Source of the DNA: Acidimicrobiaceae bacterium | Lineage (GTDB): Bacteria > Actinomycetota > Acidimicrobiia > Acidimicrobiales > Aldehydirespiratoraceae | Length of the DNA: 64,000 nucleotides | NCBI GenBank assembly: GCA_026708645.1 | Contig: JAPOUM010000001.1 | Coordinates: forward strand, 52,258 to 116,257 | Direction of reading: 5' to 3' | In this document: in pieces, positions 151 to 56,563 of the stretch | Position numbering within the stretch: position 1 is the stretch's first letter | Layout of the letters: each line of letters opens with the position of its first letter | Notes under the pieces: generated by a model | Database searches by the model: none | What the model was told of the DNA's origin: nothing | Seen by the model: only the letters and a program-made list of their open reading frames with translations | Program-made: the position numbers and the translations under genes

Positions 151-1176
151 TTGGTACCGGCCGCAAGCGCTGTTCTTGGTTGCGGTTTCGGCTTTAGAAA
201 CGACGTGACAGACCAGCCTGAATCCCAGCCTGAACCTAGTTCCGAAAGTCAGACGCTCTACCGACGTGCGGCTTATGAGCGACGAGGGCGCGTCGCTCCG
301 ATAGACGGGATCTTGCGGGTCAGCGCGCCGCGAGAATGGCTCGTGCTGCTGTTGCTCGCAGTGATCTTGCTCGCAGTGATCGCTTGGAGTTTCCTGGGCC
401 GTCTGGAGTCGGGCATCAACACCGCCTGTGTTCTGCGACCCGCGGGCGAGCGTCACGCCGTGACAGCATCCGCGGCGGGCGTCGTCGTCGAAGCTCTGGC
501 AGCCCCCGGCGAGCAGGTCAGCGCCGGCGATCCGCTGATGCGTCTCACCGTGCCCGAACTCGGCTTGGCGGCCGAGCTGGCGCAGGCTCGCTCGACTGCC
601 CTGTCGGCAACCGATCCCGGCTCTGTCGAATCCGCCGTAGCCGCAGCCGAAGCGCAAGCACTGCAAGCAGCCGAAGCCGCAGCGGCTCTGGTGCTGAGCC
701 CGGCGACCGGCGTGATGGGGCCGCTGACAGCCTCGACAGGCGCCGCGGTGAGCGCCGGCGCGACGGTCGCTGAAGTGCTCGATGTCGCGGATGCTGCGCC
801 CACGGCGCTCCTCTCGGTCGGCCCCGGCGACGCTGCGTCTCTGCGGCCGTCGATGGCGGTGAGCGTGAGCATCGTCGCAGCAGGCGCAGAGGACGCTGTC
901 CGAGCCGACGCTCGTTTCAGTCGAGCAGTCGACGCAGCTCCGTCAACCGACAGCGGCGTGATCTCAGACGGCCTGTTCGTTTCGTCGGGCGTCGGCGTTG
1001 CGGTGAGCGCCGGTGCGGGCAGGCCGGGCGTGCCCGACGGCGGCGTGACAGCCGAGTTCGACGACCCGCCCGCAGAGTTCGCAGCACTGGCCTCGCAGCC
1101 GTCGAGCGCTTACCGCTGCGAGGCGCGCATCGTCACCGACTCACAGCGGCCCATCCGGCTGCTGATCGGCGGCTGA
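151..1176 (+). CDS. HlyD-family membrane-fusion/adaptor protein of an NHLM/NHLP-type bacteriocin export system
   Basis: Short cytoplasmic N-terminus (LYRRAAYERRG) is followed by one TM helix (WLVLLLLAVILLAVIAWSFLG). A lipoyl-like hairpin motif follows (AAGVVVEALAAPGEQVSAGDPLMRL). The gene lies directly upstream of two ABC exporter genes. The true start may be GTG 205. The protein is Ala-rich and shorter than classic HlyD. Confidence 0.7.
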   Translation: MVPAASAVLGCGFGFRNDVTDQPESQPEPSSESQTLYRRAAYERRGRVAPIDGILRVSAPREWLVLLLLAVILLAVIAWSFLGRLESGINTACVLRPAGERHAVTASAAGVVVEALAAPGEQVSAGDPLMRLTVPELGLAAELAQARSTALSATDPGSVESAVAAAEAQALQAAEAAAALVLSPATGVMGPLTASTGAAVSAGATVAEVLDVADAAPTALLSVGPGDAASLRPSMAVSVSIVAAGAEDAVRADARFSRAVDAAPSTDSGVISDGLFVSSGVGVAVSAGAGRPGVPDGGVTAEFDDPPAEFAALASQPSSAYRCEARIVTDSQRPIRLLIGG

Positions 1177-1405: not shown

Positions 1406-3643
1406 ATGCGCGCAAGCCCCAACATGCGCCGTCCCCGCACGCCGGTGATGCCGCAGATGCATGCGACCGAGTGCGGTGCGGCCTGCTTGGGCATCCTCCT
1501 CGCTCACTACGGCCGGCATGTCTCCATCGAGGAGTTGCGGGCGGCCTGCGGTGTGTCGAGGGACGGATCGAGCGCTTCCGACATCGTCGCGGCCGGCCGC
1601 GCCCACGGGCTGCACCTCACCGGCTGGCGCATGGAGACTGAAGCCTTGAGCGACCTCGACAGCCCCGCCATCCTGTTCTGGGAGTTCAACCATTTCGTCG
1701 TGCTCGAAGGTGTAAGAGGCGAGCGCTACTATCTGAACGACCCCGCCAACGGGAGACGCTCGGTGAGCGCCCAGACCATGGACCGGGCCTTCACCGGCGT
1801 GGTGCTGCGGGCGCAGCGCAGCGACTCGTTCACAACGACGCGACGCCCGCCGGGGATCGTCGCCAAGCTCTGGCCCTGGCTGGCGCCCGCCAAGGGCGCG
1901 CTGGCGTTCTCGGTTCTGGCGGGACTGCTCGCTGCGGCGCCTGTAGCAGCTCTGCCGGTGATGATCGGCGTGTTCGTCGACAGGGTGCTGGGCGGCGCCG
2001 ATCCCGGCTGGGGCGCACCGCTGGCATGGGTGATGGGCGTGTCGGCAGCGGTCATGTATCTGCTGGTGTGGCTTCAGCAGTACATGTTCCGCAAGATGGC
2101 CGTCAGCCTGGCGGTGGGCGGCGTGCAAGGCTTCCTGGGACGCCTGTTCCGGCTGCCGCCGCAGTTCTTCGAGCATCGCTTCGTCGGCGATCTCACCTCG
2201 CGCGTGCATCTCGTGGACAATGTCGCGGTTGGCGCTTCCACCGGCGCTGCATGGCTGGTGATCGAAATGTTCGCCAGTCTCACGCTGCTCGCGGTGATGT
2301 TCGTGTTCGATCCTCTTCTCGCAGCGCTCATCGCTGCGGTCGCCGCTGCCAACATCGGTTTGATGCTGCTGCTCAGTCGGATGCGTGCCGACACCGAGCG
2401 CCAGTTGAGCCATGAACAGGCCATGCTGACGAGCGTCGAGTCCACGGGCCTGCGCGACATGGACATGATCCGCGCGACCGCGTCCGAGGGAGACTTCTTC
2501 GTGCGTTGGAGCGGCCAGCAGGCCCGCGAGATCGCGGCACGCCAGAAGTTCTCGGCGACCGGCTACGTGATCGGCGCCCTTCCGAGGCTTTTCGCTATGG
2601 CCGGCGCCGTGATCGTGCTCGGCGTAGGCGGATGGCAGGTCGTGCAGAACGAGCTCAGCGCCGGCGCCCTGATCGCCTTCTACACCCTGGCGGGCGCCTT
2701 CCTGGCGCCGATCGGGCGCTTCGTGCTGTTCGCCGACTCGTTCATGGTGCTCGACGCCGACTTGCAGCGTGTCTCCGATGTGCTCGCTGCTTCTGTGGAC
2801 GGCCCGCGCACCCCGGGCACGCAGCCGTCTCAAGCCCGAGCGGCCCAAGATGCCGCAGCGACCGCCGCGGCGCCTGCCGGTTCCTCGGTGAAGGTGGCGA
2901 CCTTCGGAGGCCGGCTGCGACTGGCTGGCAGTCTGGAACTGAGCGACGTCACCTTCGGCTTCAACAAGGACCGCGCGCCTTTGATCGACGCGCTCAGCCT
3001 CACCATCGAAGCCGGTCAGAGAGTCGCCTTCGTCGGGCTCACCGGTTCGGGCAAGTCCACACTGCTGCGACTCATCAGCGGCGAGCTGGTCCCCGACTCC
3101 GGGCGGATCCTCTTCGACGGCGCGCCGCGCGGCGAAGTCCCTGCGGAGGTGCTCGCCAACTCGGTGGCGTCGGTCGACCAGCAGATCCATCTTTTTGCGG
3201 CCTCCGTGCGCGACAACCTCACCATGTGGAACGCCACGGTCGACGACGAGCAGATGATCGCCGCTGCACGCGACGCCTGCATCCACGACGAGATCATGAA
3301 CCGTGTCGGCGGCTACGACTCGCCGGTCGCCGAAGCAGGGCGCAACTTCAGCGGCGGGCAGCGACAGCGGCTCGAGATCGCCAGGGCGCTCACCCAGAAC
3401 CCGTCGATCCTGCTTGCGGACGAGGCCACCAGCACCCTCGACGCCGTCGTCGAACGCGACATCGACGACGGGCTCCGCCGGCGCGGTCTGACCTGCGTGA
3501 TCGTGGCTCACCGCCTGGCGACGATCCGCGACTGCGACGTGATCGTAGTGCTCGACCGGGGCCGGGCCGCTCAGCGCGGCACCCACGAAGAACTGCTGGC
3601 CGACCGTGGCGGCCTCTATCGCCAGCTTGTGGAGTCGCAGTGA
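1406..3643 (+). CDS. Bacteriocin/RiPP ABC exporter with N-terminal C39 (double-glycine) peptidase domain (peptidase/permease/ATPase)
   Basis: C39 catalytic Cys context QMHATECGAACLGILLAHYG and His context FNHFVVLEG. TM exporter core present. Walker A GLTGSGKST, ABC signature FSGGQRQR, Walker B ILLADEATS. Alternative ATG starts at 1424 and 1448. Confidence 0.9.
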   Translation: MRASPNMRRPRTPVMPQMHATECGAACLGILLAHYGRHVSIEELRAACGVSRDGSSASDIVAAGRAHGLHLTGWRMETEALSDLDSPAILFWEFNHFVVLEGVRGERYYLNDPANGRRSVSAQTMDRAFTGVVLRAQRSDSFTTTRRPPGIVAKLWPWLAPAKGALAFSVLAGLLAAAPVAALPVMIGVFVDRVLGGADPGWGAPLAWVMGVSAAVMYLLVWLQQYMFRKMAVSLAVGGVQGFLGRLFRLPPQFFEHRFVGDLTSRVHLVDNVAVGASTGAAWLVIEMFASLTLLAVMFVFDPLLAALIAAVAAANIGLMLLLSRMRADTERQLSHEQAMLTSVESTGLRDMDMIRATASEGDFFVRWSGQQAREIAARQKFSATGYVIGALPRLFAMAGAVIVLGVGGWQVVQNELSAGALIAFYTLAGAFLAPIGRFVLFADSFMVLDADLQRVSDVLAASVDGPRTPGTQPSQARAAQDAAATAAAPAGSSVKVATFGGRLRLAGSLELSDVTFGFNKDRAPLIDALSLTIEAGQRVAFVGLTGSGKSTLLRLISGELVPDSGRILFDGAPRGEVPAEVLANSVASVDQQIHLFAASVRDNLTMWNATVDDEQMIAAARDACIHDEIMNRVGGYDSPVAEAGRNFSGGQRQRLEIARALTQNPSILLADEATSTLDAVVERDIDDGLRRRGLTCVIVAHRLATIRDCDVIVVLDRGRAAQRGTHEELLADRGGLYRQLVESQ

Positions 3644-6600
3644 CCGCCGGCGAGCCTCTTGCCGGTGACACGGCTGCAGCGGACGGCGCTTTGGCGTCGT
3701 TCGCGACCGAGCGAGGCGAAACGGTTCAAGCCGCAGCCAACAAGCCGATGCTGTTGCACGACGCGAAGAGCGTTTGGTTCGTGGCCCGAGGAGCGCTCGA
3801 CGTCTTCTGCACGGAGCGCCACGAGGGCCGTGTCGTAGCAGCCGCCAAGCATCTGCTGCGCGCCGAAGCGGGTCGTCTGGTGTTCGGTCTGCCCGATCTC
3901 GACGTGCCGCTCACCGTCATCGCCAAGGGTCTGGTCGACACGCAGCTGCTGCGTCTCGACGCGTCCTTGCTGTCGTCGCCGCAGGCGCGGAACGAGCAGA
4001 CGCCCGCCGTCGCTCACGACGAAGGCTTCGCGGCCTCTGCGACCGGTGATTCGCTGCGGGCCGAAGTGGCTCGGCAGGCTCAAGCCTGGGTGAACGACAT
4101 GGCTCTCGCCGTCTCCGCCGACATCGACTACCGCCCTCACGTCACCTGCCTAGTAAACGCGTCGGAGAATCTCGCATCAGGCTCTCAAGCAGCGGCTGCG
4201 TCAGAGCCGGCGGCGCCCGGCGAGATCGATGCCGTGAGTGCCGGCACCGCAGCCGGTGACAGCATCGCCATGAGCACGGATCCGCTTCACAGCGGCCTCG
4301 GCGCTGGAGCGCGCCCGGGTGACGGTGAGGACGGGTTCGTCGACGACGGCGAGAATCCGTTCGCGAGCGGCACTGCCCCAAGAGTGCGCCTGCTCCCTGT
4401 CGCTGACGGCGTCGTCGTCGGTGTCCGCGGCGTCGAGACGGCTTGGATCGCTGCTGCGCCCGGCGCCGATGCGGCGACGCTGTGGTATCTGGGCACCGAG
4501 GCGCTGCCGCAGTCCGTCGAAGGTTCGCCCCGCTGGATGCCGCTCACAGCGCAGAGCTGGGTGACGGTCACCGCGAGCACGACCAGCGGAGGCGAGGACC
4601 TCGCCCGAGGTTCCGCTGATGACGCCGCCGCCGGTGATCGCGGGCTGAGCATTCTGGTTGTGGAGAGCGTCCACGACGGTGAACTGTTCGCGGCGCTGGC
4701 CGACTTCCACACGTCGGCGTTGCGCGCCGAGGCTCTCAACCGGCGGTTGCGACTCGCGGACGAGGCCAACGCTCAGACGGCGCTGGCGACCCACCGGCGC
4801 ATGGCGGACGAACGCGCCCGCGCGCTTCTCGGGTCGCTGACCGCCGCCGGCGCCGCCGTCGAGGATCAAGCTGCGTCCCATCAGACGCCGCTGATGGCCG
4901 CGCTGCAGAGGATCGGACGCCACAGCGGCATCGAGTTCCGCGAGCCGCAGCTGGCGGCCACGGCGCCTCCGGCGACTCTGGAGCAGGTGATCGAAGCTTC
5001 AGGGCTGCGGGCACGGCAGATCCGCCTCACGCATGAGGACCGTTGGTGGCGAAGCGACAGCGGCGCCATGCTGGCCTACCGCCGCGCCGGCGCCGATCCG
5101 GTGGCTCTGCTGCCTGCGTTCGGCGGCTACCGCGCGGTCGGCGCCGACGGCCGCGCCGAAAGGGTCACTGCCAAGACCGCAGACGACTACTCGCCGCAGG
5201 CTTGGACGATCTACCCGAAACTGCCCGACGACCGACAGGCGACGGCGCGCGACCTGCTGCGTCTGTCGCGCTGCGGCGCAGGCGCCGACCTGGCGCGTTT
5301 CGTTGTGGCGGGACTGCTGGCGGCTCTGATCGCCCAAGGCCCGGCTGTCGCATTGGGCATGCTCTCGGATTGGGCTTTGCCGTTCGCCCGCGGCGAGGCG
5401 TTGGCTCAGATCCTCGTGGCGTTGGCGCTGCTGGGCGCCGCCGCGGCGGTGCTGACCGTTTTCGGCGCCATGTCGTTGCTGCGTCTCGAAGCGCGCGCCG
5501 GGTCGCGTCTCAGCGCCGCCGCCTGGGATCGTCTGTTGGCGCTGCCGCTGCCGTTCTTCCGCGACACGGTGGCAGGCGAGCTGGCGGTGCGCATGGGCAC
5601 GTTCCAGCAGCTGCGCGACCTGCTTTCGGGGGTGGTGGTCAATGTCTTCGGATCGGTGATCTTCTTGCTGCCCACGCTCGGGGTGTTGTTCTTCTACGAC
5701 GCGGTGCTGGCCGCGACAGCGGTGGCGATGTCGCTCGCGGCGCTGGCTGTGGTCGTCGTCCTCGGAATCTCCCAGATACCTCATCAGAGGCTTTGGCACA
5801 GCGCTGTGCGTGACTTGTGGGGCCGACTGTTCCAGTTCATCGGAGGCATCGCCAAGATCCGCGCCAGTGGAGCCGAGACGGCGGCCTTCGCGTCGTCGGC
5901 GGGCGCCTACCGCGACAAGCAGGTCGCCGAGATACGCAGATCGCGCATAGGCGAGCACTTGGCCGCTTTCGGTTCGGCTTATCCGTTCGTGTTCGCTGCG
6001 GTGCTGTGCGCCGTCACCATCGCCCGCGGCGATGCCGTGGCAGTCGGCGACTTCGTCGTGGCGCTTACGGCCTCGTTCGTGCTGTATGCGGCCGTCGCCG
6101 ATCTGGGCTTCGCCGTCGACGCGCTGGCCGAGGCGTTCACCGCCTACGAGCAGATGACCCCGATCCTTGAAGCGGTGCCCGAACGCGACGCCTCAGCGTC
6201 GATAGCGCCGGTCGCGCTCGAAGGCGAGCTCGCAGTGGAGCAAGTCAGTTTCCGTTATCTGCCCGACGGCCCGCCGGTGCTCGACGATGTGACCCTCACG
6301 GCGCGCGCTGGTGAGTTCGTCGCCGTGGTCGGCGGCTCAGGAGCAGGCAAGAGCACGCTGGTGCGGCTGATGCTCGGCCTCGACACGCCCGAGCGGGGCG
6401 CAGTGTTCTTCGACGGACGCGACCTGCGGAACCTCGACCGCCGAGCGGTGCGCCGCCAGATCGGCGTGGTTCCCCAAGACAGTTCTCTTCAGCCTGGAAG
6501 CCTCGTCGAGAACATCATCGGCATGTCCGAGGACCTGACCCTCGACGACGCTTGGAGGGCGGCGCGTCTGGCCGCGGTCGACCGTGACATCACCGAGATG

Positions 6601-6942
6601 CCGATGCAGATGATGACCATGGTCGCGGATCGTGCGGGCGTCTTCTCCGGCGGGCAGATACAGCGGATCCGCATCGCTGCGGCACTGGCGCGCCGACCCA
6701 GCATCGTGATACTCGACGAGGCGACGAGCTGGCTGGACTCGCGGAGCCAGGCCGAGGTGATGGAGAGCATCGAAGGCTTGGGGATCACCCGCGTCGTGGT
6801 AGCGCATCGGCTCTCCACCATCCGCAGAGCCGACCGGGTCTACGTGCTCGAAGCCGGACGGGTGGTGCAGGTCGGCGGCTACGAGGAGCTGCTGCAAGCT
6901 CCGGGACGCTTCCGCGAACTGGTGAGCCGCCAGCTCTTGTAG
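3640..6942 (+). CDS. Second ABC exporter subunit (permease/ATPase) with N-terminal cyclic-nucleotide-binding-like domain, NHLP-type
   Basis: GTG 3640 overlaps the upstream stop (GTGA). N-terminal region LLHDAKSVWFVARGALDVF...RLVFGL resembles cNMP-binding-like domains that replace the peptidase in the partner subunit. Walker A VGGSGAGKST, signature FSGGQIQR, Walker B VILDEATS. The track ORF portion 2506-3639 overlaps the previous gene in a different reading frame and is not coding. Confidence 0.85.
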   Translation: MTAGEPLAGDTAAADGALASFATERGETVQAAANKPMLLHDAKSVWFVARGALDVFCTERHEGRVVAAAKHLLRAEAGRLVFGLPDLDVPLTVIAKGLVDTQLLRLDASLLSSPQARNEQTPAVAHDEGFAASATGDSLRAEVARQAQAWVNDMALAVSADIDYRPHVTCLVNASENLASGSQAAAASEPAAPGEIDAVSAGTAAGDSIAMSTDPLHSGLGAGARPGDGEDGFVDDGENPFASGTAPRVRLLPVADGVVVGVRGVETAWIAAAPGADAATLWYLGTEALPQSVEGSPRWMPLTAQSWVTVTASTTSGGEDLARGSADDAAAGDRGLSILVVESVHDGELFAALADFHTSALRAEALNRRLRLADEANAQTALATHRRMADERARALLGSLTAAGAAVEDQAASHQTPLMAALQRIGRHSGIEFREPQLAATAPPATLEQVIEASGLRARQIRLTHEDRWWRSDSGAMLAYRRAGADPVALLPAFGGYRAVGADGRAERVTAKTADDYSPQAWTIYPKLPDDRQATARDLLRLSRCGAGADLARFVVAGLLAALIAQGPAVALGMLSDWALPFARGEALAQILVALALLGAAAAVLTVFGAMSLLRLEARAGSRLSAAAWDRLLALPLPFFRDTVAGELAVRMGTFQQLRDLLSGVVVNVFGSVIFLLPTLGVLFFYDAVLAATAVAMSLAALAVVVVLGISQIPHQRLWHSAVRDLWGRLFQFIGGIAKIRASGAETAAFASSAGAYRDKQVAEIRRSRIGEHLAAFGSAYPFVFAAVLCAVTIARGDAVAVGDFVVALTASFVLYAAVADLGFAVDALAEAFTAYEQMTPILEAVPERDASASIAPVALEGELAVEQVSFRYLPDGPPVLDDVTLTARAGEFVAVVGGSGAGKSTLVRLMLGLDTPERGAVFFDGRDLRNLDRRAVRRQIGVVPQDSSLQPGSLVENIIGMSEDLTLDDAWRAARLAAVDRDITEMPMQMMTMVADRAGVFSGGQIQRIRIAAALARRPSIVILDEATSWLDSRSQAEVMESIEGLGITRVVVAHRLSTIRRADRVYVLEAGRVVQVGGYEELLQAPGRFRELVSRQLL

Positions 6943-7032
6943 CCCTCGCGTTCAGCCCTCGCGCTCCGGTCTTCGCTCCGGCACGGCGCCTGCAAAGTTG
7001 CACCTTGTTCGACACGGGCACCGCCGCACAGC

Positions 7033-7038
7033 TACAAT
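7033..7038 (+). promoter_or_regulatory. Possible -10 hexamer (TACAAT) for the small peptide gene
   Basis: TACAAT fits the actinobacterial TAnnnT -10 pattern and lies about 90 nt upstream of the GTG start. No convincing -35 element. Confidence 0.3.
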
Positions 7039-7047
7039 GATGCTCAA

Positions 7048-7112
7048 ACCTCGGGGACAAGCACCTCGGGGGCAAGCACCTCGGGGGCAAGCACCTCGGG
7101 GGCAAGCACCTC
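7048..7112 (+). repeat. Tandem 15-nt repeat (ACCTCGGGGGCAAGC) x4 plus a partial fifth copy, running into the Shine-Dalgarno sequence
   Basis: The sequence reads acctcggggacaagc, then acctcgggggcaagc x3, then acctc followed by aaaggag (SD) and GTG 7125. Track ORFs 6998..7207(+) and 6785..7204(-) merely translate this repeat (PRGQA/RCLPP repeats). Confidence 0.95.
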
Positions 7113-7124
7113 AAAGGAGCAACA

Positions 7125-7313
7125 GTGAGCAAAGACATCGTCGACACCGAAGCGGCCGAGCGCCAGATGACCGAAGCCGAACTCGAAGAAGTGCGAGGCG
7201 GCATTGACTACAGCGACAGCTACATCTCCGACAGGGAGAACGCGAGCAGCGGCAACGCACAGCAGTCCTACAGCAATAGCAGCCGCTACGGCGGCGGCAA
7301 CGACAGAGCCTGA
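7125..7313 (+). CDS. Double-glycine-leader precursor peptide (putative exported bacteriocin/RiPP/signal peptide)
   Basis: AAAGGAG SD lies 6 nt before GTG. Leader is MSKDIVDTEAAERQMTEAELEEVRGG, with the L-x-x-V-x-G-G pattern recognised by C39 peptidases. The 36-aa core is IDYSDSYISDRENASSGNAQQSYSNSSRYGGGNDRA. Third-codon positions are strongly G/C, as in genuine genes here. The gene lies immediately downstream of the C39 exporter genes. Confidence 0.75.
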   Translation: MSKDIVDTEAAERQMTEAELEEVRGGIDYSDSYISDRENASSGNAQQSYSNSSRYGGGNDRA

Positions 7314-7329
7314 TAAAAAATATCGCTCT

Positions 7330-7347
7330 GCGCGGGTTGTGCCGCGC
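7330..7347 (+). terminator. Small GC hairpin after the peptide gene (weak terminator candidate)
   Basis: gcgcgg-gttgtg-ccgcgc, a 6-bp stem with no U-tract. Confidence 0.3.
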
Positions 7348-7482
7348 GGCTAGACCTGCTAACTTAGTCCGTCACCCCTCACCACGGCTGCAAGCCAGCG
7401 GCGAGGGGGCAGTGCCATCGCTGCGAACGAGCAGGCCTTCTCGGCCTCTTCGCAATCGCAGCCGGTGTGCGATTGCTTCTTG

Positions 7483-7497
7483 AAAACGGAAGAGACG
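7483..7497 (+). other. 5' half of the 16S processing stem (pairs with 9350..9364)
   Basis: aaaacggaagagacg is the exact reverse complement of cgtctcttccgtttt in the spacer downstream of 16S. This is the typical RNase III stem bracketing 16S. Confidence 0.8.
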
Positions 7498-7744
7498 GAC
7501 GCATAGCGAGTGCGGGCGTCGGCTCGGGTTGCGTAACCCGAGGCGATGCCTGTCAATTCAAGGTTCGGCATGTCCGCCGGACCGACCGGTCGTTTCCGAC
7601 GACCGGGGAGCCGAAGTCCTCACCGCACCCAAGCGGGGAGGGCCTGGCTCTCTGAACGCACGGCTGCCGACGCACCCGGCCCCGCCGGGAAGGCAAGCCG
7701 AGCAACCCGATCGAAAGCTCGGCCCTCGGGCTGCGCTTGAGATC

Positions 7745-9273
<1,529 letters not shown>

Positions 9274-9527: not shown

Positions 9528-12618
<3,091 letters not shown>

Positions 12619-12640
12619 CATCTTCGCATCGCGCGTTCGG

Positions 12641-12773: not shown

Positions 12774-12891
<118 letters not shown>

Positions 12892-12904
12892 TTTCGTTTG
12901 CTTG

Positions 12905-21325: not shown

Positions 21326-24300
21326 TTGCTGGCGTCCGTGGAGGGCTTCGCCACGGCGGTGCGCGCTCGCGGGCGTGTCGGCGGATTCAACGAAGAGACG
21401 TTGACAGCCCCCGTTCGCGAATTGATCGAGGAGATCGCCGCATCCATGGGCATCAAAGGACTGCTGGTCGTCGACAAGGCGCCCGTGGTCGTCGGCGATG
21501 TCTCGCTGGGCGTCCCGGACATTTCCGCGTATCACCGTGGACTGCTACGTCTCGTGATCGAGCTGAAGTCTCCAGGCAGGGGCGCCGACCCGACGCGCTT
21601 CACGGGGCGCGAGCACAGTCAATGGCAGCGCTACAGCCAGCTGCCCAACGTCGTCTACACCGACGGCAACACGTGGACGCTTTGGAGGGCCGGCGACATC
21701 TGGGGTCCGGCACTTGAAATCTGCTCTGACCTCAACGACTTGAATGCTGCGGTGACGCCCGACCCGCAGGAGGTGCTGCGGTTCTTCGGCGACGTTCTCA
21801 GCTGGACGCCGCCGCGGGTCGTGTCCACTCATCAGCTCGCTGAACAAGTGGCCGGTCGCTGCCGCGCGCTCCGCAGCGACGTCAACGCCCTCCCCGAAGA
21901 AGTGCTGCGGGGACTGACGAGCGACTGGCGCGAGATGCTCTTCCCCGAGCTCGAGGACAAGCAGTTCGTTGACGCCTACACGCAGACGGTCGCGTTCGCA
22001 CTGCTGTCAGCCAGCGGACTCGGCATCGACTTGAGCATGAACCTCGACCCGGTGAAATATGACCGGCTCGGGCTGCTGCTGCACCATGCGGCTGAGAGCC
22101 TCGGCGCCGAGCGGGGCGTGCTCGGAAGGGCTCTGATGATGCTGACCGCTGATTCGCGGGTCCGTTCCGCCGCAGCGGCGTCGTTGGACGCGATGATCGC
22201 TCTCGCCGCGGCCGTGGACTGGGACAAAATGCGAGGCTCGGGCCACAGCGACGATTGGATGGACTTCTACGAGACGTTCCTCGACGCATACGACCCCGAG
22301 CTTCGCAAGCTCGCGGGCTCGTACTACACGCCCAAGCCAGTCGTCGAGTGGATGGCGGACTTCACCGATCGGATACTCGTGGAGCGGTTCGGCCTGGCAT
22401 CTGGCTACGGCAGCGACGACGTGACAGTCGTCGATCCGGCGCTCGGCACCGGAACGTATCTCGTCAGCATACTCGACCGGATTGCCGGCTCTGTGACCGC
22501 CAGCGTGGGCAGCGGCCATGCGGGCGCAGCGATCAACGCGGCCGTTTCTGAGCGGGTCATAGGGTTCGAGATCCAAGCCTGCCCCTACGCAGTGGCGCAG
22601 CTTCGCCTCGTGGAGACTCTCAAAGCGCGCGATCCGAAACTCCGGGTCGAGGAGCCGGCGGTCTACCTGACTGACACTCTCGCCGACCCGGATGCCAGCG
22701 CCGGGCAGCAGATGCTTTTCATGCGGGCGATCACCGAGTCACGGAAGAAGGCTGATCGGATCAAGCGGAAAACCCCCGTGACGGTCGTGATCGGCAACCC
22801 GCCGTACCTTGCCGGCGCGGGTCAGAGCAGCTGGGTGGCCAGGGAGCTCCTCGGCGACTGGCAGCCCGACACGGAGTGGGGCGTCGGCACCCATGCGAAG
22901 AACCTGTCGAACCTCTATGTGTATTTCTGGCGTTGGGCGGCATGGAAAGTGTTCGAGAACTCTCAGCAAGGCCCGCAAGACCAGGCTGGAATCGTGTCTT
23001 TCATAACTCCGACAGGCTGGCTCGACGGCGACGGCTTCCAGCAGATGAGGCGATGGCTGCGCGAATGGTCGAGTCACATATGGATACTCGATCTCTCGCC
23101 GGAGGGGCACCAAGCGCCGGCCAAGACCCAAGTGTTCAAAGCGATGCGCCAACCGGTGGCGGTCGTGACCGCCGTTCGAGCGCCCGAGCATGACGGCGCC
23201 TGCGAGGTCCGTTACCACCGGGTGCCCGCAGGCGAGCGTTCGGCGAAGTTCGCTCACATAGCGGACCTCACAGAACTGGAAGATACTCGTTGGCGGCTGC
23301 TTGCGCCGGACCCTCTCGGCGATCGCGGCTCTTTCACGCCCGCTGCCTCGTCGGCATGGCTGCAGATGCCCGCCGTCGACGATCTGCTGCCCTGGAACGC
23401 GAGCGGCATGATGGTCGGGCGCACATGGCCCGTCGCGCCGGACCGCGACACTCTTCAGGACAGGTATGCAGCCCTGCTCTCCCAGCCGAATGATTCAGAG
23501 ATGACGAGGCACCTCGACGAGCACAAGCGGGACCGCACCATCGATACCGAGCTCGTCGACAACCTCACGTCGGACTGCACGAGACCCGGCCCGCTCAGGC
23601 AGCGGCAGCCGCGCAGCGCGCCCGTCGTCGAATACGGCTATCGCAGCTTCGACCGCCACTACGTCATCCGCGACAAGCGGCTCATCAACCGGCCTAACCC
23701 GTCGCTGTGGGCCGCTCACGGCGATCAGCAGATATATCTCGCGGCGCCCGCGCTGGGCACCGCCAGCAGTCGTCCGAAGATCGCCGGATCTGGCGGCCAG
23801 ATAATCTCCTTCAGCGCACAGATCCCGGACATGCATTATCTGGCCGGTTCCAGGGCGGGGCGCATCCATCCGGTTTGGCTCGACTCGCAGTCCGCGACCC
23901 CGAACTGCGAGCCGGGTTTGTTGAGGTTGCTTTCTGAAAAGGCCGGACGCGAAGTGTCGGCGCTGGATGTGCCGGCCTACATCGCAGCCGTCGCTGCTCA
24001 CCCCGGCTTCACCGCGGTCTACCGCGACGATCTGCTCGACGCCAAGTCGATGCGGGTGCCGCTCACGGCGGACCCAGAACTTTTTGATCATGCGGCAGGC
24101 CTCGGCCGCCGGATCCTGTATCTGAGCACATTCGGGCAGCGTTGCCGGCCGCCTGAGGCGCCACCAGGCTGCCCGAGGGCGCCGGGCGGCCCGACCCTGG
24201 AAACCCCGATGCCTGCTAAGCCGGAAAGCCTCCGGCACGATCAGGCTGCACGCACCCTGACCATCGCGGGCCGCGGCATCGACGGTTCGCCGGCGAGCGG

Positions 24301-24664
24301 CATCGTGGCCAACGTAGCCGTCGAGGTTTTCGATTACAGCGTCTCCACGATGAACGTGCTGCAATCCTGGTTCGACTACCGCAAACACGAACCGTCCGGC
24401 AAGAAGGGCTCCCCGCTCGACTACATGGTCCCGGAAACCTGGCGAACCCGCTACACCGATGACCTGATCGACCTGCTGCACGTCCTGACTCTGCTAGTGG
24501 ACGCACGCCCCGAGCAGCGACGACTTCTCGACGAAATCAAGGCAGGGCCTCTCATCGGCCTAGACACCCTGAAAGCAGCCGGGGCGCTGCCGGGCGTCAA
24601 AGGAACGCGGGCCAAGCCTGCTGAGTTCGAGCCGGGCCGGCAGTCGCCGACTTTGGACGTCTGA
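21326..24664 (+). CDS. Single-polypeptide restriction-modification enzyme (Type IIG/IIL, MmeI-like; PD-ExK nuclease + gamma-class N6-adenine methyltransferase + C-terminal specificity domain)
   Basis: N-terminal PD...ExK (GVPDISAY...LRLVIELKSPG). SAM motif I VVDPALGTGTYL. Motif IV VVIGNPPYL. C-terminal region with YGYRSFDRHYVIRDKRL resembles type ISP/IIG specificity domains. No Walker A/helicase motifs seen. Confidence 0.75.
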   Translation: MLASVEGFATAVRARGRVGGFNEETLTAPVRELIEEIAASMGIKGLLVVDKAPVVVGDVSLGVPDISAYHRGLLRLVIELKSPGRGADPTRFTGREHSQWQRYSQLPNVVYTDGNTWTLWRAGDIWGPALEICSDLNDLNAAVTPDPQEVLRFFGDVLSWTPPRVVSTHQLAEQVAGRCRALRSDVNALPEEVLRGLTSDWREMLFPELEDKQFVDAYTQTVAFALLSASGLGIDLSMNLDPVKYDRLGLLLHHAAESLGAERGVLGRALMMLTADSRVRSAAAASLDAMIALAAAVDWDKMRGSGHSDDWMDFYETFLDAYDPELRKLAGSYYTPKPVVEWMADFTDRILVERFGLASGYGSDDVTVVDPALGTGTYLVSILDRIAGSVTASVGSGHAGAAINAAVSERVIGFEIQACPYAVAQLRLVETLKARDPKLRVEEPAVYLTDTLADPDASAGQQMLFMRAITESRKKADRIKRKTPVTVVIGNPPYLAGAGQSSWVARELLGDWQPDTEWGVGTHAKNLSNLYVYFWRWAAWKVFENSQQGPQDQAGIVSFITPTGWLDGDGFQQMRRWLREWSSHIWILDLSPEGHQAPAKTQVFKAMRQPVAVVTAVRAPEHDGACEVRYHRVPAGERSAKFAHIADLTELEDTRWRLLAPDPLGDRGSFTPAASSAWLQMPAVDDLLPWNASGMMVGRTWPVAPDRDTLQDRYAALLSQPNDSEMTRHLDEHKRDRTIDTELVDNLTSDCTRPGPLRQRQPRSAPVVEYGYRSFDRHYVIRDKRLINRPNPSLWAAHGDQQIYLAAPALGTASSRPKIAGSGGQIISFSAQIPDMHYLAGSRAGRIHPVWLDSQSATPNCEPGLLRLLSEKAGREVSALDVPAYIAAVAAHPGFTAVYRDDLLDAKSMRVPLTADPELFDHAAGLGRRILYLSTFGQRCRPPEAPPGCPRAPGGPTLETPMPAKPESLRHDQAARTLTIAGRGIDGSPASGIVANVAVEVFDYSVSTMNVLQSWFDYRKHEPSGKKGSPLDYMVPETWRTRYTDDLIDLLHVLTLLVDARPEQRRLLDEIKAGPLIGLDTLKAAGALPGVKGTRAKPAEFEPGRQSPTLDV

Positions 24665-24699: not shown

Positions 24700-28183
<3,484 letters not shown>

Positions 28184-51992: not shown

Positions 51993-53117
51993 CTAGAATA
52001 GTGATGGTTGACTTGACGGACTTACTATACTAGAGATGTGGGCAGAGCTGCTCGGTGATTTTGCGGTGGTTTGATCGATATAGGGTGATGTGATCCGATC
52101 AACGCCGTGTTTGGGGCCGGCGACTACGACGTACTCCAGGTTTCGCAGGTGGGAGACTTCGCCTACGCGCTCGCCGTTAAGTGAATGTATGCCGATCTGA
52201 GCGCCCACATAGCGTTTGGAGTCGAATGCCAACGGACGGACAGCTTCGTAATCTGAACAAAAGTCTGTCAATTGATCCAGTGTCAGCCATGACTCATTGT
52301 TGTAGGAGAGTATCAGATACTCAGTGTTCAGAGATTTGATGGTCGATTCCAATGCTTGAGGCATGGATCGTTTTTGATTGAATAAGCTCTTGGTACTGTC
52401 ATCTTTGCAGTCGATTCTCTTGCAAGCGGTGCCGTAGTGTTGTGGGGAGTCCCAAGCGACGAGAGTCTCATATATGTGGTAGTTGCAGAAATAGCGGTGC
52501 TGGTTGTAGGGAGGGTCAAGATAAGCGAGATCGAAATCTCCGAGCTGGGACGCTAGTTTCATTGCATCTCCGCGAATGGTGACTCCGTCGCCGTGGATCA
52601 GTTCAGGGACTCTGAGTTCGAGATCCTTGAAGGACCTTTGTGCCCAAGACTTCAGGTATGCCATTTGCACAGCGGTAGTCGAGTCGACGCGGTCAGCGGC
52701 CAAGATCAAGCTTGTCAATAGGATTGGATAGAGCGTTGAGTCTTTGTAGTCGCTTTCGATAGCGTTGCGTATCGCATCAATGCGTCCACCATTGCGCGGC
52801 TGGAAGAATCGCGATTGCCGACAGAACGTTTCAGTGAAATAGCCCGGATCCGGCTTCAGATCCGACAGGCGACGGACAGCGTCGCGCAAATCAGACTGAT
52901 TGACCTGTGATGCACAAGTGGAGATCCAGCACTTGCTGAAGACTTCAGAGTATCGGGCGCTGTCGACTGCTGTCACATGAGCGCCTCGGGCTTTGAGGGC
53001 TTGGGCGACGCGGGTCGTTCCCGTGAAGAGGTCGAGGACTCGCTGGGCGCCGCTTCGCGAAACGAGGTCGACGAGCGTCGGAACCAAGCGCCGTTTCGAG
53101 CCGAGATATTTGATCAT
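51993..53117 (-). CDS. Site-specific DNA adenine methyltransferase (Dam-like, alpha-class/D12)
   Basis: N-terminal IKYLGSKRRL, SAM motif VLDLFTGTTRV, catalytic motif AYLDPPYN. The motif order (I before IV) is that of alpha-class N6A methyltransferases. Confidence 0.85.
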   Translation of the reverse strand: MIKYLGSKRRLVPTLVDLVSRSGAQRVLDLFTGTTRVAQALKARGAHVTAVDSARYSEVFSKCWISTCASQVNQSDLRDAVRRLSDLKPDPGYFTETFCRQSRFFQPRNGGRIDAIRNAIESDYKDSTLYPILLTSLILAADRVDSTTAVQMAYLKSWAQRSFKDLELRVPELIHGDGVTIRGDAMKLASQLGDFDLAYLDPPYNQHRYFCNYHIYETLVAWDSPQHYGTACKRIDCKDDSTKSLFNQKRSMPQALESTIKSLNTEYLILSYNNESWLTLDQLTDFCSDYEAVRPLAFDSKRYVGAQIGIHSLNGERVGEVSHLRNLEYVVVAGPKHGVDRITSPYIDQTTAKSPSSSAHISSIVSPSSQPSLF

Positions 53118-56071: not shown

Positions 56072-56172
56072 CAGGCAGGTCACAATAGCTGTCGATAGCC
56101 GCCGGAGGCGCGGCTCTGCGCGCCTGTCGCTGATCGGCGGCAATGTTCTTGGCGATGATCTTGTCTCGGTTG

Positions 56173-56563
56173 TGGAGCTGGGGAGAATCGAACTCCCGTC
56201 CGTCAGGCGGACACCGGGATCGCTACGACCATTCCCGAGAGTCGCAGCTTGCGGCTGCCGCCACGCCGGGTCGTGTGGATCCCAGGGGATCCCGCCGCCG
56301 GATCTTTCTCCGATGTCAGCGGTCTTTGCCTGCCGTCAGCGGGTCTCTCCCCGCCGTCCACCGCTGCTTCTGGTGCCAGGCTGCAGCGGTCAGGCCCCGC
56401 GTGCCATTGCTGGTCGCGATGATTCTTGCAGCTAGATCAGATCAGGCTGCGAGAACGAGATCGTCGTTTTCGGCGTCTCTGGGGGTGCCCTGTTTAAGGA
56501 GTCTGAGCAACTCCGGTCGCACTCCGCGGCTTCCTAGTCCCGACGTCGAAACCGGTCAGCCCC
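56173..56563 (-). ncRNA. ssrA: tmRNA (SsrA); tag reading frame encodes AENDDLVLAA
   Basis: Minus-strand 5' end is GGGGCTGACCGGTTTCGACG. The 3' tRNA-like end is GGACGGGAGTTCGATTCTCCCCAGCTCCA, with a G3:U pair in the acceptor stem. Resume codon GCC at 56472-74 and stop at 56442-44. CCA is not encoded (the next bases are CAA). Confidence 0.93.

Follow-up and report, generated by a model that had tools for sequence, protein, structure and literature searches.

Predicted double-glycine-leader peptides with cysteine-free, hydrophilic cores linked to an NHLP-type exporter in Acidimicrobiia

Short peptides with a double-glycine (GG) leader are normally read as bacteriocins, pheromones or precursors of peptides that are made on the ribosome and modified after translation (RiPPs). 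On a 64,000-nucleotide stretch of an Acidimicrobiaceae genome (hereafter the window; positions 52,258 to 116,257 of contig JAPOUM010000001.1 in assembly GCA_026708645.1), we analyzed a 62-codon gene at 7125–7313 of the forward strand that very probably specifies a genuine exported GG-leader peptide, together with the three exporter genes that precede it. Several described systems come close to this locus: The NHLP (nitrile-hydratase-like leader peptide)/Nif11-type export system comprises a HlyD-like protein (TIGR03794), an ATP-binding cassette (ABC) transporter with a C39 peptidase domain (TIGR03796) and a further ABC protein (TIGR03797; Haft et al. 2010, PMC2887384). The counterparts of this trio in cyanobacteria are the bacteriocin clusters of groups IV/V, in which the peptidase-less ABC protein bears a CAP_ED annotation (Wang et al. 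2011, PMC3140520). The RaxX system of Xanthomonas oryzae (RaxA/RaxB/RaxST; 10.1101/442517, PMC6637879) couples a GG precursor of about 60 residues, with a hydrophilic, Cys-free, Tyr-containing core, to a C39 ABC transporter and a periplasmic adaptor in a producer that lives in a eukaryotic host. The ComC/CSP pheromones and class II bacteriocins are served by peptidase-containing ABC transporters (PCATs) of the ComAB/LcnCD type (PMC7595303). Finally, HetC of Nostoc PCC 7120 is a PCAT-family protein that combines an active C39 domain with an N-terminal cyclic-nucleotide (cNMP)-binding-type domain on one polypeptide; the latter domain binds ppGpp and is thought to gate the export of a signalling peptide (PMC10986499).

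The precursor open reading frame (ORF) of the window is a genuine gene. It opens with GTG, is translated as MSKDIVDTEAAERQMTEAELEEVRGGIDYSDSYISDRENASSGNAQQSYSNSSRYGGGNDRA and closes with TGA TAA. No in-frame start codon lies upstream of the GTG at 7125, and this start is supported by a homologue, P0009, which begins with ATG at the equivalent residue (MSKETVSS...). Based on the translation and the family alignments, the product comprises a 26-codon GG leader, MSKDIVDTEAAERQMTEAELEEVRGG (7125–7202), and a 36-codon core, IDYSDSYISDRENASSGNAQQSYSNSSRYGGGNDRA (7203–7313 with the first stop codon), which meet at the predicted cut site ...EEVRGG/IDY. Counted back from that site, the leader displays M-12, E-8, L-7, V-4, Gly-2 and Gly-1, with a Glu rather than a hydrophobic residue at -15; E19, G25 and G26 are invariant in the alignment of 16 homologues. 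Hydrophobic residues at leader positions -4, -7 and -12 are required in PCAT substrates (10.1101/442517), and the precursor combines these with the acidic residue at -8, the GG at -2/-1 and a nearby C39-competent ABC protein, as expected of a GG-leader peptide. The core has no Cys, four Tyr and, as its sole aliphatic residues, two Ile; its grand average of hydropathy (GRAVY) is -1.43, its isoelectric point (pI) 4.4, its net charge -2 and its predicted unmodified monoisotopic mass 3890.66 Da. It begins with I-D-Y-S-D, placing a D-Y pair at core residues 2–3. The G+C content of the ORF by codon position is 0.56/0.47/0.82, as compared to third-position values (GC3) of 0.73–0.90 in the real genes of the window, and a Shine–Dalgarno sequence (AAAGGAG, 7113–7119, forward strand) lies 5 nt before the GTG, with similar ones preceding the homologues. 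These observations bear out what a first-pass annotation of the stretch had described: the coordinates, translation and RGG site (an exact match on re-translation), the Cys-free core with four Tyr and nearly no hydrophobic residues, and the coding support given by the Shine–Dalgarno sequence and the G/C-rich third positions. When compared with Pfam and NCBIfam, the precursor matched no family at threshold, the lone match being a sub-threshold one to TIGR03949 over the GG region. Likewise, it matched neither the NHLP (TIGR03793) nor the Nif11 (TIGR03798) model, and its 26-residue leader is not of the long NHLP/Nif11 type.

Judged by sequence, the three genes preceding the precursor make up an exporter of the NHLP type that has two ABC subunits, rather than a single PCAT. 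The first (205–1176, forward strand) codes for a HlyD-like membrane-fusion/accessory protein (Pfam HlyD_3 and HlyD_D23), and a gene is called here in identical contigs. Its frame is open from 151 and gene callers put the start at 343; the GTG at 205 is an estimate, since the family model aligns from about nucleotide 301. The second (1406–3643, forward strand) encodes ABC1, a 745-residue protein with a C39 peptidase domain (Pfam Peptidase_C39, 5e-32), a transmembrane domain (ABC_membrane) and an ATPase (ABC_tran). The best match of its C39 domain in the PDB is the double-glycine protease LahT150 (6MPZ, 1e-35), with which the active-site residues Gln17, Cys23, His96 and Asp112 align (QMHATEC(23)GAACL, NH(96)FVV and ND(112)P); hence, ABC1 is the presumed leader-cleaving subunit. 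The third (3640–6942, forward strand) encodes ABC2, a protein of 1100 residues in which two CAP/cNMP-binding-like barrels and a long helix are followed by a C39-like domain, a transmembrane domain and an ATPase. The TIGR03797 match spans residues 430–1113 of the translated frame 3598–6942 (about ABC2 residues 416–1099), and the N-terminal 415 residues (within 3640–5340 of the window) matched nothing in Pfam or in a sequence search of the PDB. Here the barrels (about residues 25–110 and 250–340) were found by fold comparison only, using an AlphaFold 2 (AF2) model with a mean confidence (pLDDT) of 79; they match the regulatory subunit of protein kinase A, CprK and CRP with a probability of about 1, and are split by a low-confidence Ala/Gly/Asp-rich insert (residues 182–238). 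They agree with the CAP_ED annotation of the cyanobacterial peptidase-less ABC protein (PMC3140520). Residues 408–567 (pLDDT 89 in the AF2 model) best match the C39-like domain of HlyB (3ZUA), followed by PCAT1 and ComA. This C39-like domain (about residues 408–540) can be regarded as inactive, given that no invariant Cys or His was found in it across 31 homologues.

Thus, the window parallels the NHLP/Nif11 system in having, to go by the best-scoring families, the same three proteins in the same order, a Gly-Gly leader, precursor genes beside the pump and a CAP/cNMP-binding-type region at the N-terminus of the peptidase-less ABC protein. It differs in its classical 26-residue leader, as opposed to the 70–80-residue nitrile-hydratase-like or Nif11-like leaders, in a core devoid of Cys or of a heterocyclisable pattern, in the lack of a nearby LanM enzyme or one of the thiazole/oxazole-modified microcin (TOMM) type, and in its host, an Acidimicrobiia symbiont. 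Moreover, all three pump proteins score below the NCBIfam equivalog cut-offs, even as the respective family is the best-scoring one for each (bits/cut-off: HlyD-like TIGR03794 62/156, ABC1 TIGR03796 839/853 and ABC2 TIGR03797 667/709). The parallel with HetC lies in the cNMP-binding-type domains, which in HetC are joined to the active C39 domain in a protein whose substrate is not known, whereas in the window they belong to the partner that lacks a peptidase, with the substrate genes next to the pump. If the modeled fold is right, the exporter would pair defined substrates with a PCAT-type pump bearing nucleotide-sensor domains, which is exactly what HetC lacks.

A single-sequence search with the window peptide recovered only itself. 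A profile search against 5.8 billion clusters, together with HMMER run in full over 1.84 billion representatives, expanded the family to about 25 members in all; the HMMER scan recovered the window ORF at E = 2.5e-12 along with about 20 further small proteins, and the family profile E-values range from 1e-8 to 1e-20 (for 1.84e9 proteins). The exact peptide is present on 19 contigs, with identical peptide-gene DNA in the 10 loci that were read and shared flanks 97–100% identical to the window. A scan with ABC2, taking one genome per species, uncovered seven related loci (ABC2 identity 61–75%) in metagenome-assembled genomes of Acidimicrobiales bearing the names Ca. Aldehydirespirator, Ca. Poriferisodalis and Ca. 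Poriferisocius, all of which are described as sponge-associated clades (PMC11706023). Immediately behind ABC2, each of the seven has one or two small ORFs, and a family member is likewise found there in a further locus (L028); the small ORFs of the seven loci code for a leader of the form ...ERELTE(S/D)EL(D/E)EVRGG and a Cys-free hydrophilic core. The window's own locus has a second precursor gene at its upstream end: a 62-residue product is encoded some 100 nt ahead of window position 1, in the interval that separates tyrS from the HlyD-like gene (2481–2669 of L002; ...EAADRELTDAELEGVRGG followed by the cut site and WDWTAFDPTSAATSPPLPGDSQN, as read from contigs carrying the identical window peptide), with a leader homologous to that of the window peptide and a different, Trp-rich core that is likewise Cys-free, acidic and hydrophilic.

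The first-pass annotation had read the product as an exported GG-leader peptide served by an adjacent C39 transporter, and had proposed a search for homologous small ORFs beside such transporters and for conservation of the frame in relatives. The conserved leader and the intact Gln/Cys/His/Asp set of the C39 domain speak for the predicted export, the homologous ORFs are there in 7/7 related genomes, and frame and leader are kept across two families of Acidimicrobiia. The adjacency requires amendment: the C39-bearing ABC1 is nearby, and the immediate neighbour of the peptide gene is ABC2, which lacks a catalytic C39 domain. Of the roles put forward in that annotation, signalling is plausible, metal or mineral binding finds no support in the present data, and for Ser/Tyr-directed chemistry no co-located enzyme was found. 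These results also bear on the suggestion that the GC-rich spacer 5′ of the ribosomal RNA (rRNA) operon just happens to hold an open frame here, one that is not expressed as a peptide. One could point to the many spurious ORFs of like size in this 65% GC window, to the 16S gene only 430 nt away and to the want of a Pfam or NCBIfam family at threshold. However, the leader is conserved as protein across genera (E down to 1e-20), its place after ABC2 is kept, Shine–Dalgarno and promoter-like sites recur, GC3 reaches 0.82, and a congener retains the frame and leader DNA (75%) despite a different core. A chance frame is accordingly the least credible explanation, with next to no probability left to it.

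The family is small and lineage-restricted; to date, its members come solely from Acidimicrobiia whose names mark them as sponge symbionts. A scan of metagenomes with a narrowed peptide alignment gave 600 pattern matches, none of which was confirmed by tblastn, and the literature that was searched contained no description of GG peptides from sponge Acidimicrobiia. Remoter homologues of ABC2 (35–46% identity) occur on 53 metagenome contigs, several of which, going by their accession prefixes, we take to be from sponge metagenomes. Exporters of the same type are accompanied at L036 (4274–4767), L038 (4146–4337), L039, L047 and L049 by unrelated short peptides that have a GG leader and an acidic, hydrophilic core, all free of Cys except for one Cys in L038; the L036 peptides adjoin a histidine kinase and a response-regulator/SpoIIE phosphatase, the only locus with such neighbours. 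An unrelated locus, L034, carries a true NHLP precursor. The proteins P0025, P0027, P0030, P0031 and P0038 show several tandem leader-like segments (ELT(D/E)EELxxVxGG) and may be poly-precursors, with peptides freed by repeated GG cleavage. A stand-alone family member, P0016, is encoded far from the exporter on two Ca. Aldehydirespirator chromosomes (10001–10174 of both L029 and L030). The genes next after it are homologous to each other; that of L030 bears a SulP sulfate transporter annotation, and that of L029 has no Pfam match on record.

Analysis of 20 family cores showed that all are Cys-free, with GRAVY values from -0.6 to -2.5. Most are basic (pI 8.5–12), and the two peptides of the window's locus are acidic outliers. 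Three types could be told apart: Type 1, which includes the window peptide, has a Tyr motif (e.g., ...NERSY(S/N)..Y...). The window core has DSY..R(E/N) and A(Q/K)(Q/R)(S/T)YS in common with P0024 and P0015, and its YSNSSRY resembles the YNSNSRY of P0028. Type 2 is marked by SQQSFAH(N/K)WNNGGSA, and type 3, to which the upstream paralogue belongs, is Trp-rich. One aromatic core position (Y/F/W) is kept in 16/16 aligned sequences. The type-2 cores are more conserved than their own leaders (core identity 53–77%; nonsynonymous differences, pN, 0.2–0.3 versus synonymous differences, pS, 0.44–0.95). Thus, the mature type-2 peptide is under purifying selection, which supports the existence of a specific binding partner.

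Since RiPPs are the main cargo of NHLP-type exporters and the genes for their modification may lie far away (PMC2887384, PMC3140520), one may ask whether the pump merely cleaves and exports a peptide tailored by an enzyme encoded elsewhere, be it through Tyr O-sulfation, as in RaxX, or through an aromatic cross-link installed by a cytochrome P450 or radical S-adenosylmethionine (radical-SAM) enzyme. The universally kept aromatic position, the stand-alone member beside a SulP gene in two genomes and the I-D-Y-S-D start of the window core, where Asp precedes Tyr much as in RaxX and PSY (10.1101/442517), are in keeping with this. The window also shares with RaxX the other features set out above, from the size of the precursor and the nature of its core to the C39 transporter with its adaptor and the life in a eukaryotic host. 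On the other side, no maturase, sulfotransferase, radical-SAM, P450, LanM, LanB or YcaO-type gene was found in the neighbourhoods across more than 10 distinct family contexts, and a scan of 27 larger window proteins revealed no RiPP maturase, sulfotransferase or two-component gene. The N-terminal D-Y is absent from most homologues, and the conserved aromatic residue may be Phe or Trp and hence cannot be a sulfation site. In further distinction from RaxX, there is no sequence similarity to RaxX/PSY, no host receptor is known for the window peptide and the exporter has two ABC subunits. The Cys-free composition of all 20 cores likewise sets the family apart from lanthipeptides, thiopeptides and TOMMs. 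A RiPP with a remote tailoring enzyme is therefore a doubtful proposition. As for the earlier claim that the core fits no familiar class, it stands insofar as the features of class II bacteriocins and Cys-dependent RiPPs are wanting, with the qualification that Cys-free hydrophilic GG peptides have precedents in RaxX (10.1101/442517) and on the other metagenome contigs.

With no modification gene linked in these contexts, the simplest product is the unmodified 36-mer. We lean, with moderate confidence, towards a C39-cleaved, pump-exported and probably unmodified linear peptide that acts outside the cell by specific binding, as a signal. In such a pathway, the acidic, helix-prone leader would be bound by ABC1 at its C39 cysteine-protease domain and cut there after Gly26, and the 36-residue core would be translocated by the ABC1/ABC2 heterodimer working with the HlyD-like accessory protein. 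The inactive C39-like domain of ABC2 would probably hold the substrate, and its cNMP-binding-like domains would probably gate export on an intracellular nucleotide, by analogy with HetC. The product would most likely be linear, unmodified, intrinsically disordered and anionic, and would serve outside the cell as a cell–cell or host-facing signal through sequence-specific binding, with no insertion into membranes.

Several observations weigh against this signalling interpretation. The expression, cleavage and secretion of the peptide stand as predictions, a modification enzyme could be encoded elsewhere in the genome, and the TIGR03796 and TIGR03797 matches lie just under the trusted cut-offs, with that to TIGR03794 far under. 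In the window's lineage, neither a histidine kinase nor a response regulator that could serve as a receptor is linked to the locus, so that signalling is a hypothesis, and the 19 contigs with the exact peptide are so nearly identical that they offer no within-species information on selection. The evolution of the type-1 cores, that of the window included, also cuts both ways: their leaders are kept (pN 0.12–0.30), and the cores diverge near the synonymous rate (pN 0.5–0.6 versus pS 0.5–0.9). The nearest comparison comes from contig L032, which carries P0009 and whose 16S gene is 98.6% identical to that of the window, marking the window organism as a close relative; the Ca. A. catecholifindens assembly encodes P0009 as well. 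At this syntenic site (tyrS, peptide, rRNA operon), identity to the window is 75% for the leader-coding DNA and 87% for the 445 nt that run from the stop codon of the peptide gene into the 16S gene, and yet the core-coding DNA has no detectable similarity to the window core, even as the reading frame is kept. Thus, the window's core type evolves fast, a turnover that fits the arms race of a bacteriocin as well as it does pherotype divergence.

A conserved leader joined to a quickly replaced core is usual for both pheromones and bacteriocins with GG leaders. The likeness of the window to ComC/CSP pheromones and class II bacteriocins extends to the leader positions -12, -8, -7, -4 and GG, to cleavage coupled with export by a C39 ABC protein and HlyD-like accessory in a monoderm (here a prediction), and to the conserved leader with a variable core. 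In contrast to the amphipathic or hydrophobic substrates of the ComAB/LcnCD systems, the window core is strongly hydrophilic; moreover, neither a histidine kinase/response regulator nor an immunity gene is linked to it, and its exporter is heterodimeric with regulatory domains. It is conceivable that the peptide is directed against close relatives, as a non-lytic bacteriocin of narrow spectrum or a toxin resembling class II microcins, and is taken up via a specific receptor, with an arms race driving core turnover. Such a view could draw on the exporter family, which is the one used for bacteriocins (PMC2887384), on the hypervariable core with its cassette-like swap in the congener, typical of bacteriocin loci, on the many genomes with two different peptides in tandem, reminiscent of two-peptide bacteriocins, and on the cationic character of most family cores. 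Nevertheless, inspection of the called genes found no conserved immunity gene (a small, hydrophobic membrane protein) beside any family member, which argues against a bacteriocin in general, and the extreme hydrophilicity (GRAVY -1.43, net charge -2) argues against a membrane-active one. The cores have no hydrophobic stretch, the window core is neither amphipathic, hydrophobic nor cationic, both peptides of its locus are anionic, and the conservation of type-2 cores across genera is unusual for weapons. We therefore consider a receptor-mediated bacteriocin rather improbable, while placing it next after the secreted binding ligand or signal and ahead of the RiPP with a remote enzyme, which is in turn followed by the essentially excluded chance ORF.

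A more speculative proposal, which we regard as unlikely, is that these peptides, with their disorder and their many Tyr/Trp, Asn, Gly, Ser and Arg residues, are symbiosis factors specific to sponge-dwelling Acidimicrobiia. They might then act on the host or its matrix as mimics of hormones or ligands, like RaxX/PSY, be adhesive or coacervating peptides, with a composition reminiscent of mussel foot protein-3, or represent a new class of Tyr-directed RiPPs with the enzyme encoded elsewhere. Under this proposal, a stringent-response nucleotide could gate export via the tandem cyclic-nucleotide-binding domains of ABC2, and the conserved place 5′ of the rRNA operon could couple the precursor to growth-rate control. 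Whichever function applies, the machinery and the leader type are known ones. Novelty lies in the peptide family and the chemistry of its cores, in the pairing with an NHLP-type pump where both an NHLP/Nif11 leader and a maturase are missing, and in the restriction to Acidimicrobiia named as sponge symbionts. The family is devoid of the usual core features (hydrophobicity and Cys) and of linked maturase, immunity and receptor genes, in spite of which two families of these Acidimicrobiia retain it together with its pump. A defined peptide of 3890.66 Da, a protease domain and an exporter also furnish concrete reagents for studying what uncultivated sponge symbionts secrete.

The peptide gene seems to be equipped with a promoter and a ribosome-binding site of its own. 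A sigma-70-like promoter candidate, TCGACA-18-TACAAT, lies at 7009–7038 on the forward strand (10/12 matches in the promoter scan, with none in 50 shuffles), and, among 14 peptide genes checked in eight related loci, 8 have a TTGACA-N17-19-TAnnnT site 49–99 nt upstream. Between the candidate promoter and the Shine–Dalgarno sequence, 4.3 copies of a 15-bp tandem repeat, ACCTCGGGGGCAAGC (7048–7112, forward strand; Tandem Repeats Finder, TRF), would make up most of the 5′ untranslated region. This repeat is unique to this site in the window (0/100 shuffles), and the strain alleles have either four copies or two. The repeat unit CCUCGGGG is self-complementary, so that two units together can form a hairpin of 8 bp, and the Shine–Dalgarno sequence can base-pair with the last CCUC; the repeat may tune translation. 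An RNA G-quadruplex in these G5-rich repeats was considered and dropped, since ViennaRNA with G-quadruplexes enabled favours the ordinary hairpins. No canonical intrinsic terminator was found in the scan 3′ of the peptide gene; a GC-rich hairpin following the stop codons (7332–7359, forward strand; -19.2 kcal/mol, z = -1.76), marginally better than shuffles, may be a terminator lacking a U-tract. The homologues in L015 and L028 are followed by hairpin and T-tract terminators, and that in L013 by a hairpin without a T run. A further tandem repeat, of 57 bp in two copies (1203–1315; TRF), occupies the spacer between the HlyD-like gene and ABC1, and blastn showed its copy number to vary among strain contigs that are otherwise 99% identical.

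The flanks of the exporter and peptide genes differ in every related genome, the neighbours being housekeeping genes. In the window, a complete rRNA operon lies downstream of the peptide gene, with the 16S gene at 7745–9263, the 23S at 9529–12620 and the 5S at 12776–12892. A GG-leader peptide gene is situated directly 5′ of the rRNA operon on the same strand both in the window (7313–7745) and in Ca. Aldehydirespirator catecholifindens (L031 and L032, in the order tyrS, peptide, 16S). DUF222-HNH endonuclease genes recur beside the peptide/exporter loci (L001 1–679, L016 14807–15982, L029 4579–6132 and L031 2480–4159), that of L016 lying between ABC2 and the peptide genes, which hints at local mobility or rearrangement. 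Elsewhere in the window are genes for a Type ISP restriction-modification enzyme (21326–24664), a KatG-type catalase-peroxidase (24700–26913, reverse strand) and a D12-class adenine methyltransferase (51993–53117, reverse strand), and a transfer-messenger RNA (56170–56563, reverse strand) that specifies the tag AENDDLVLAA.

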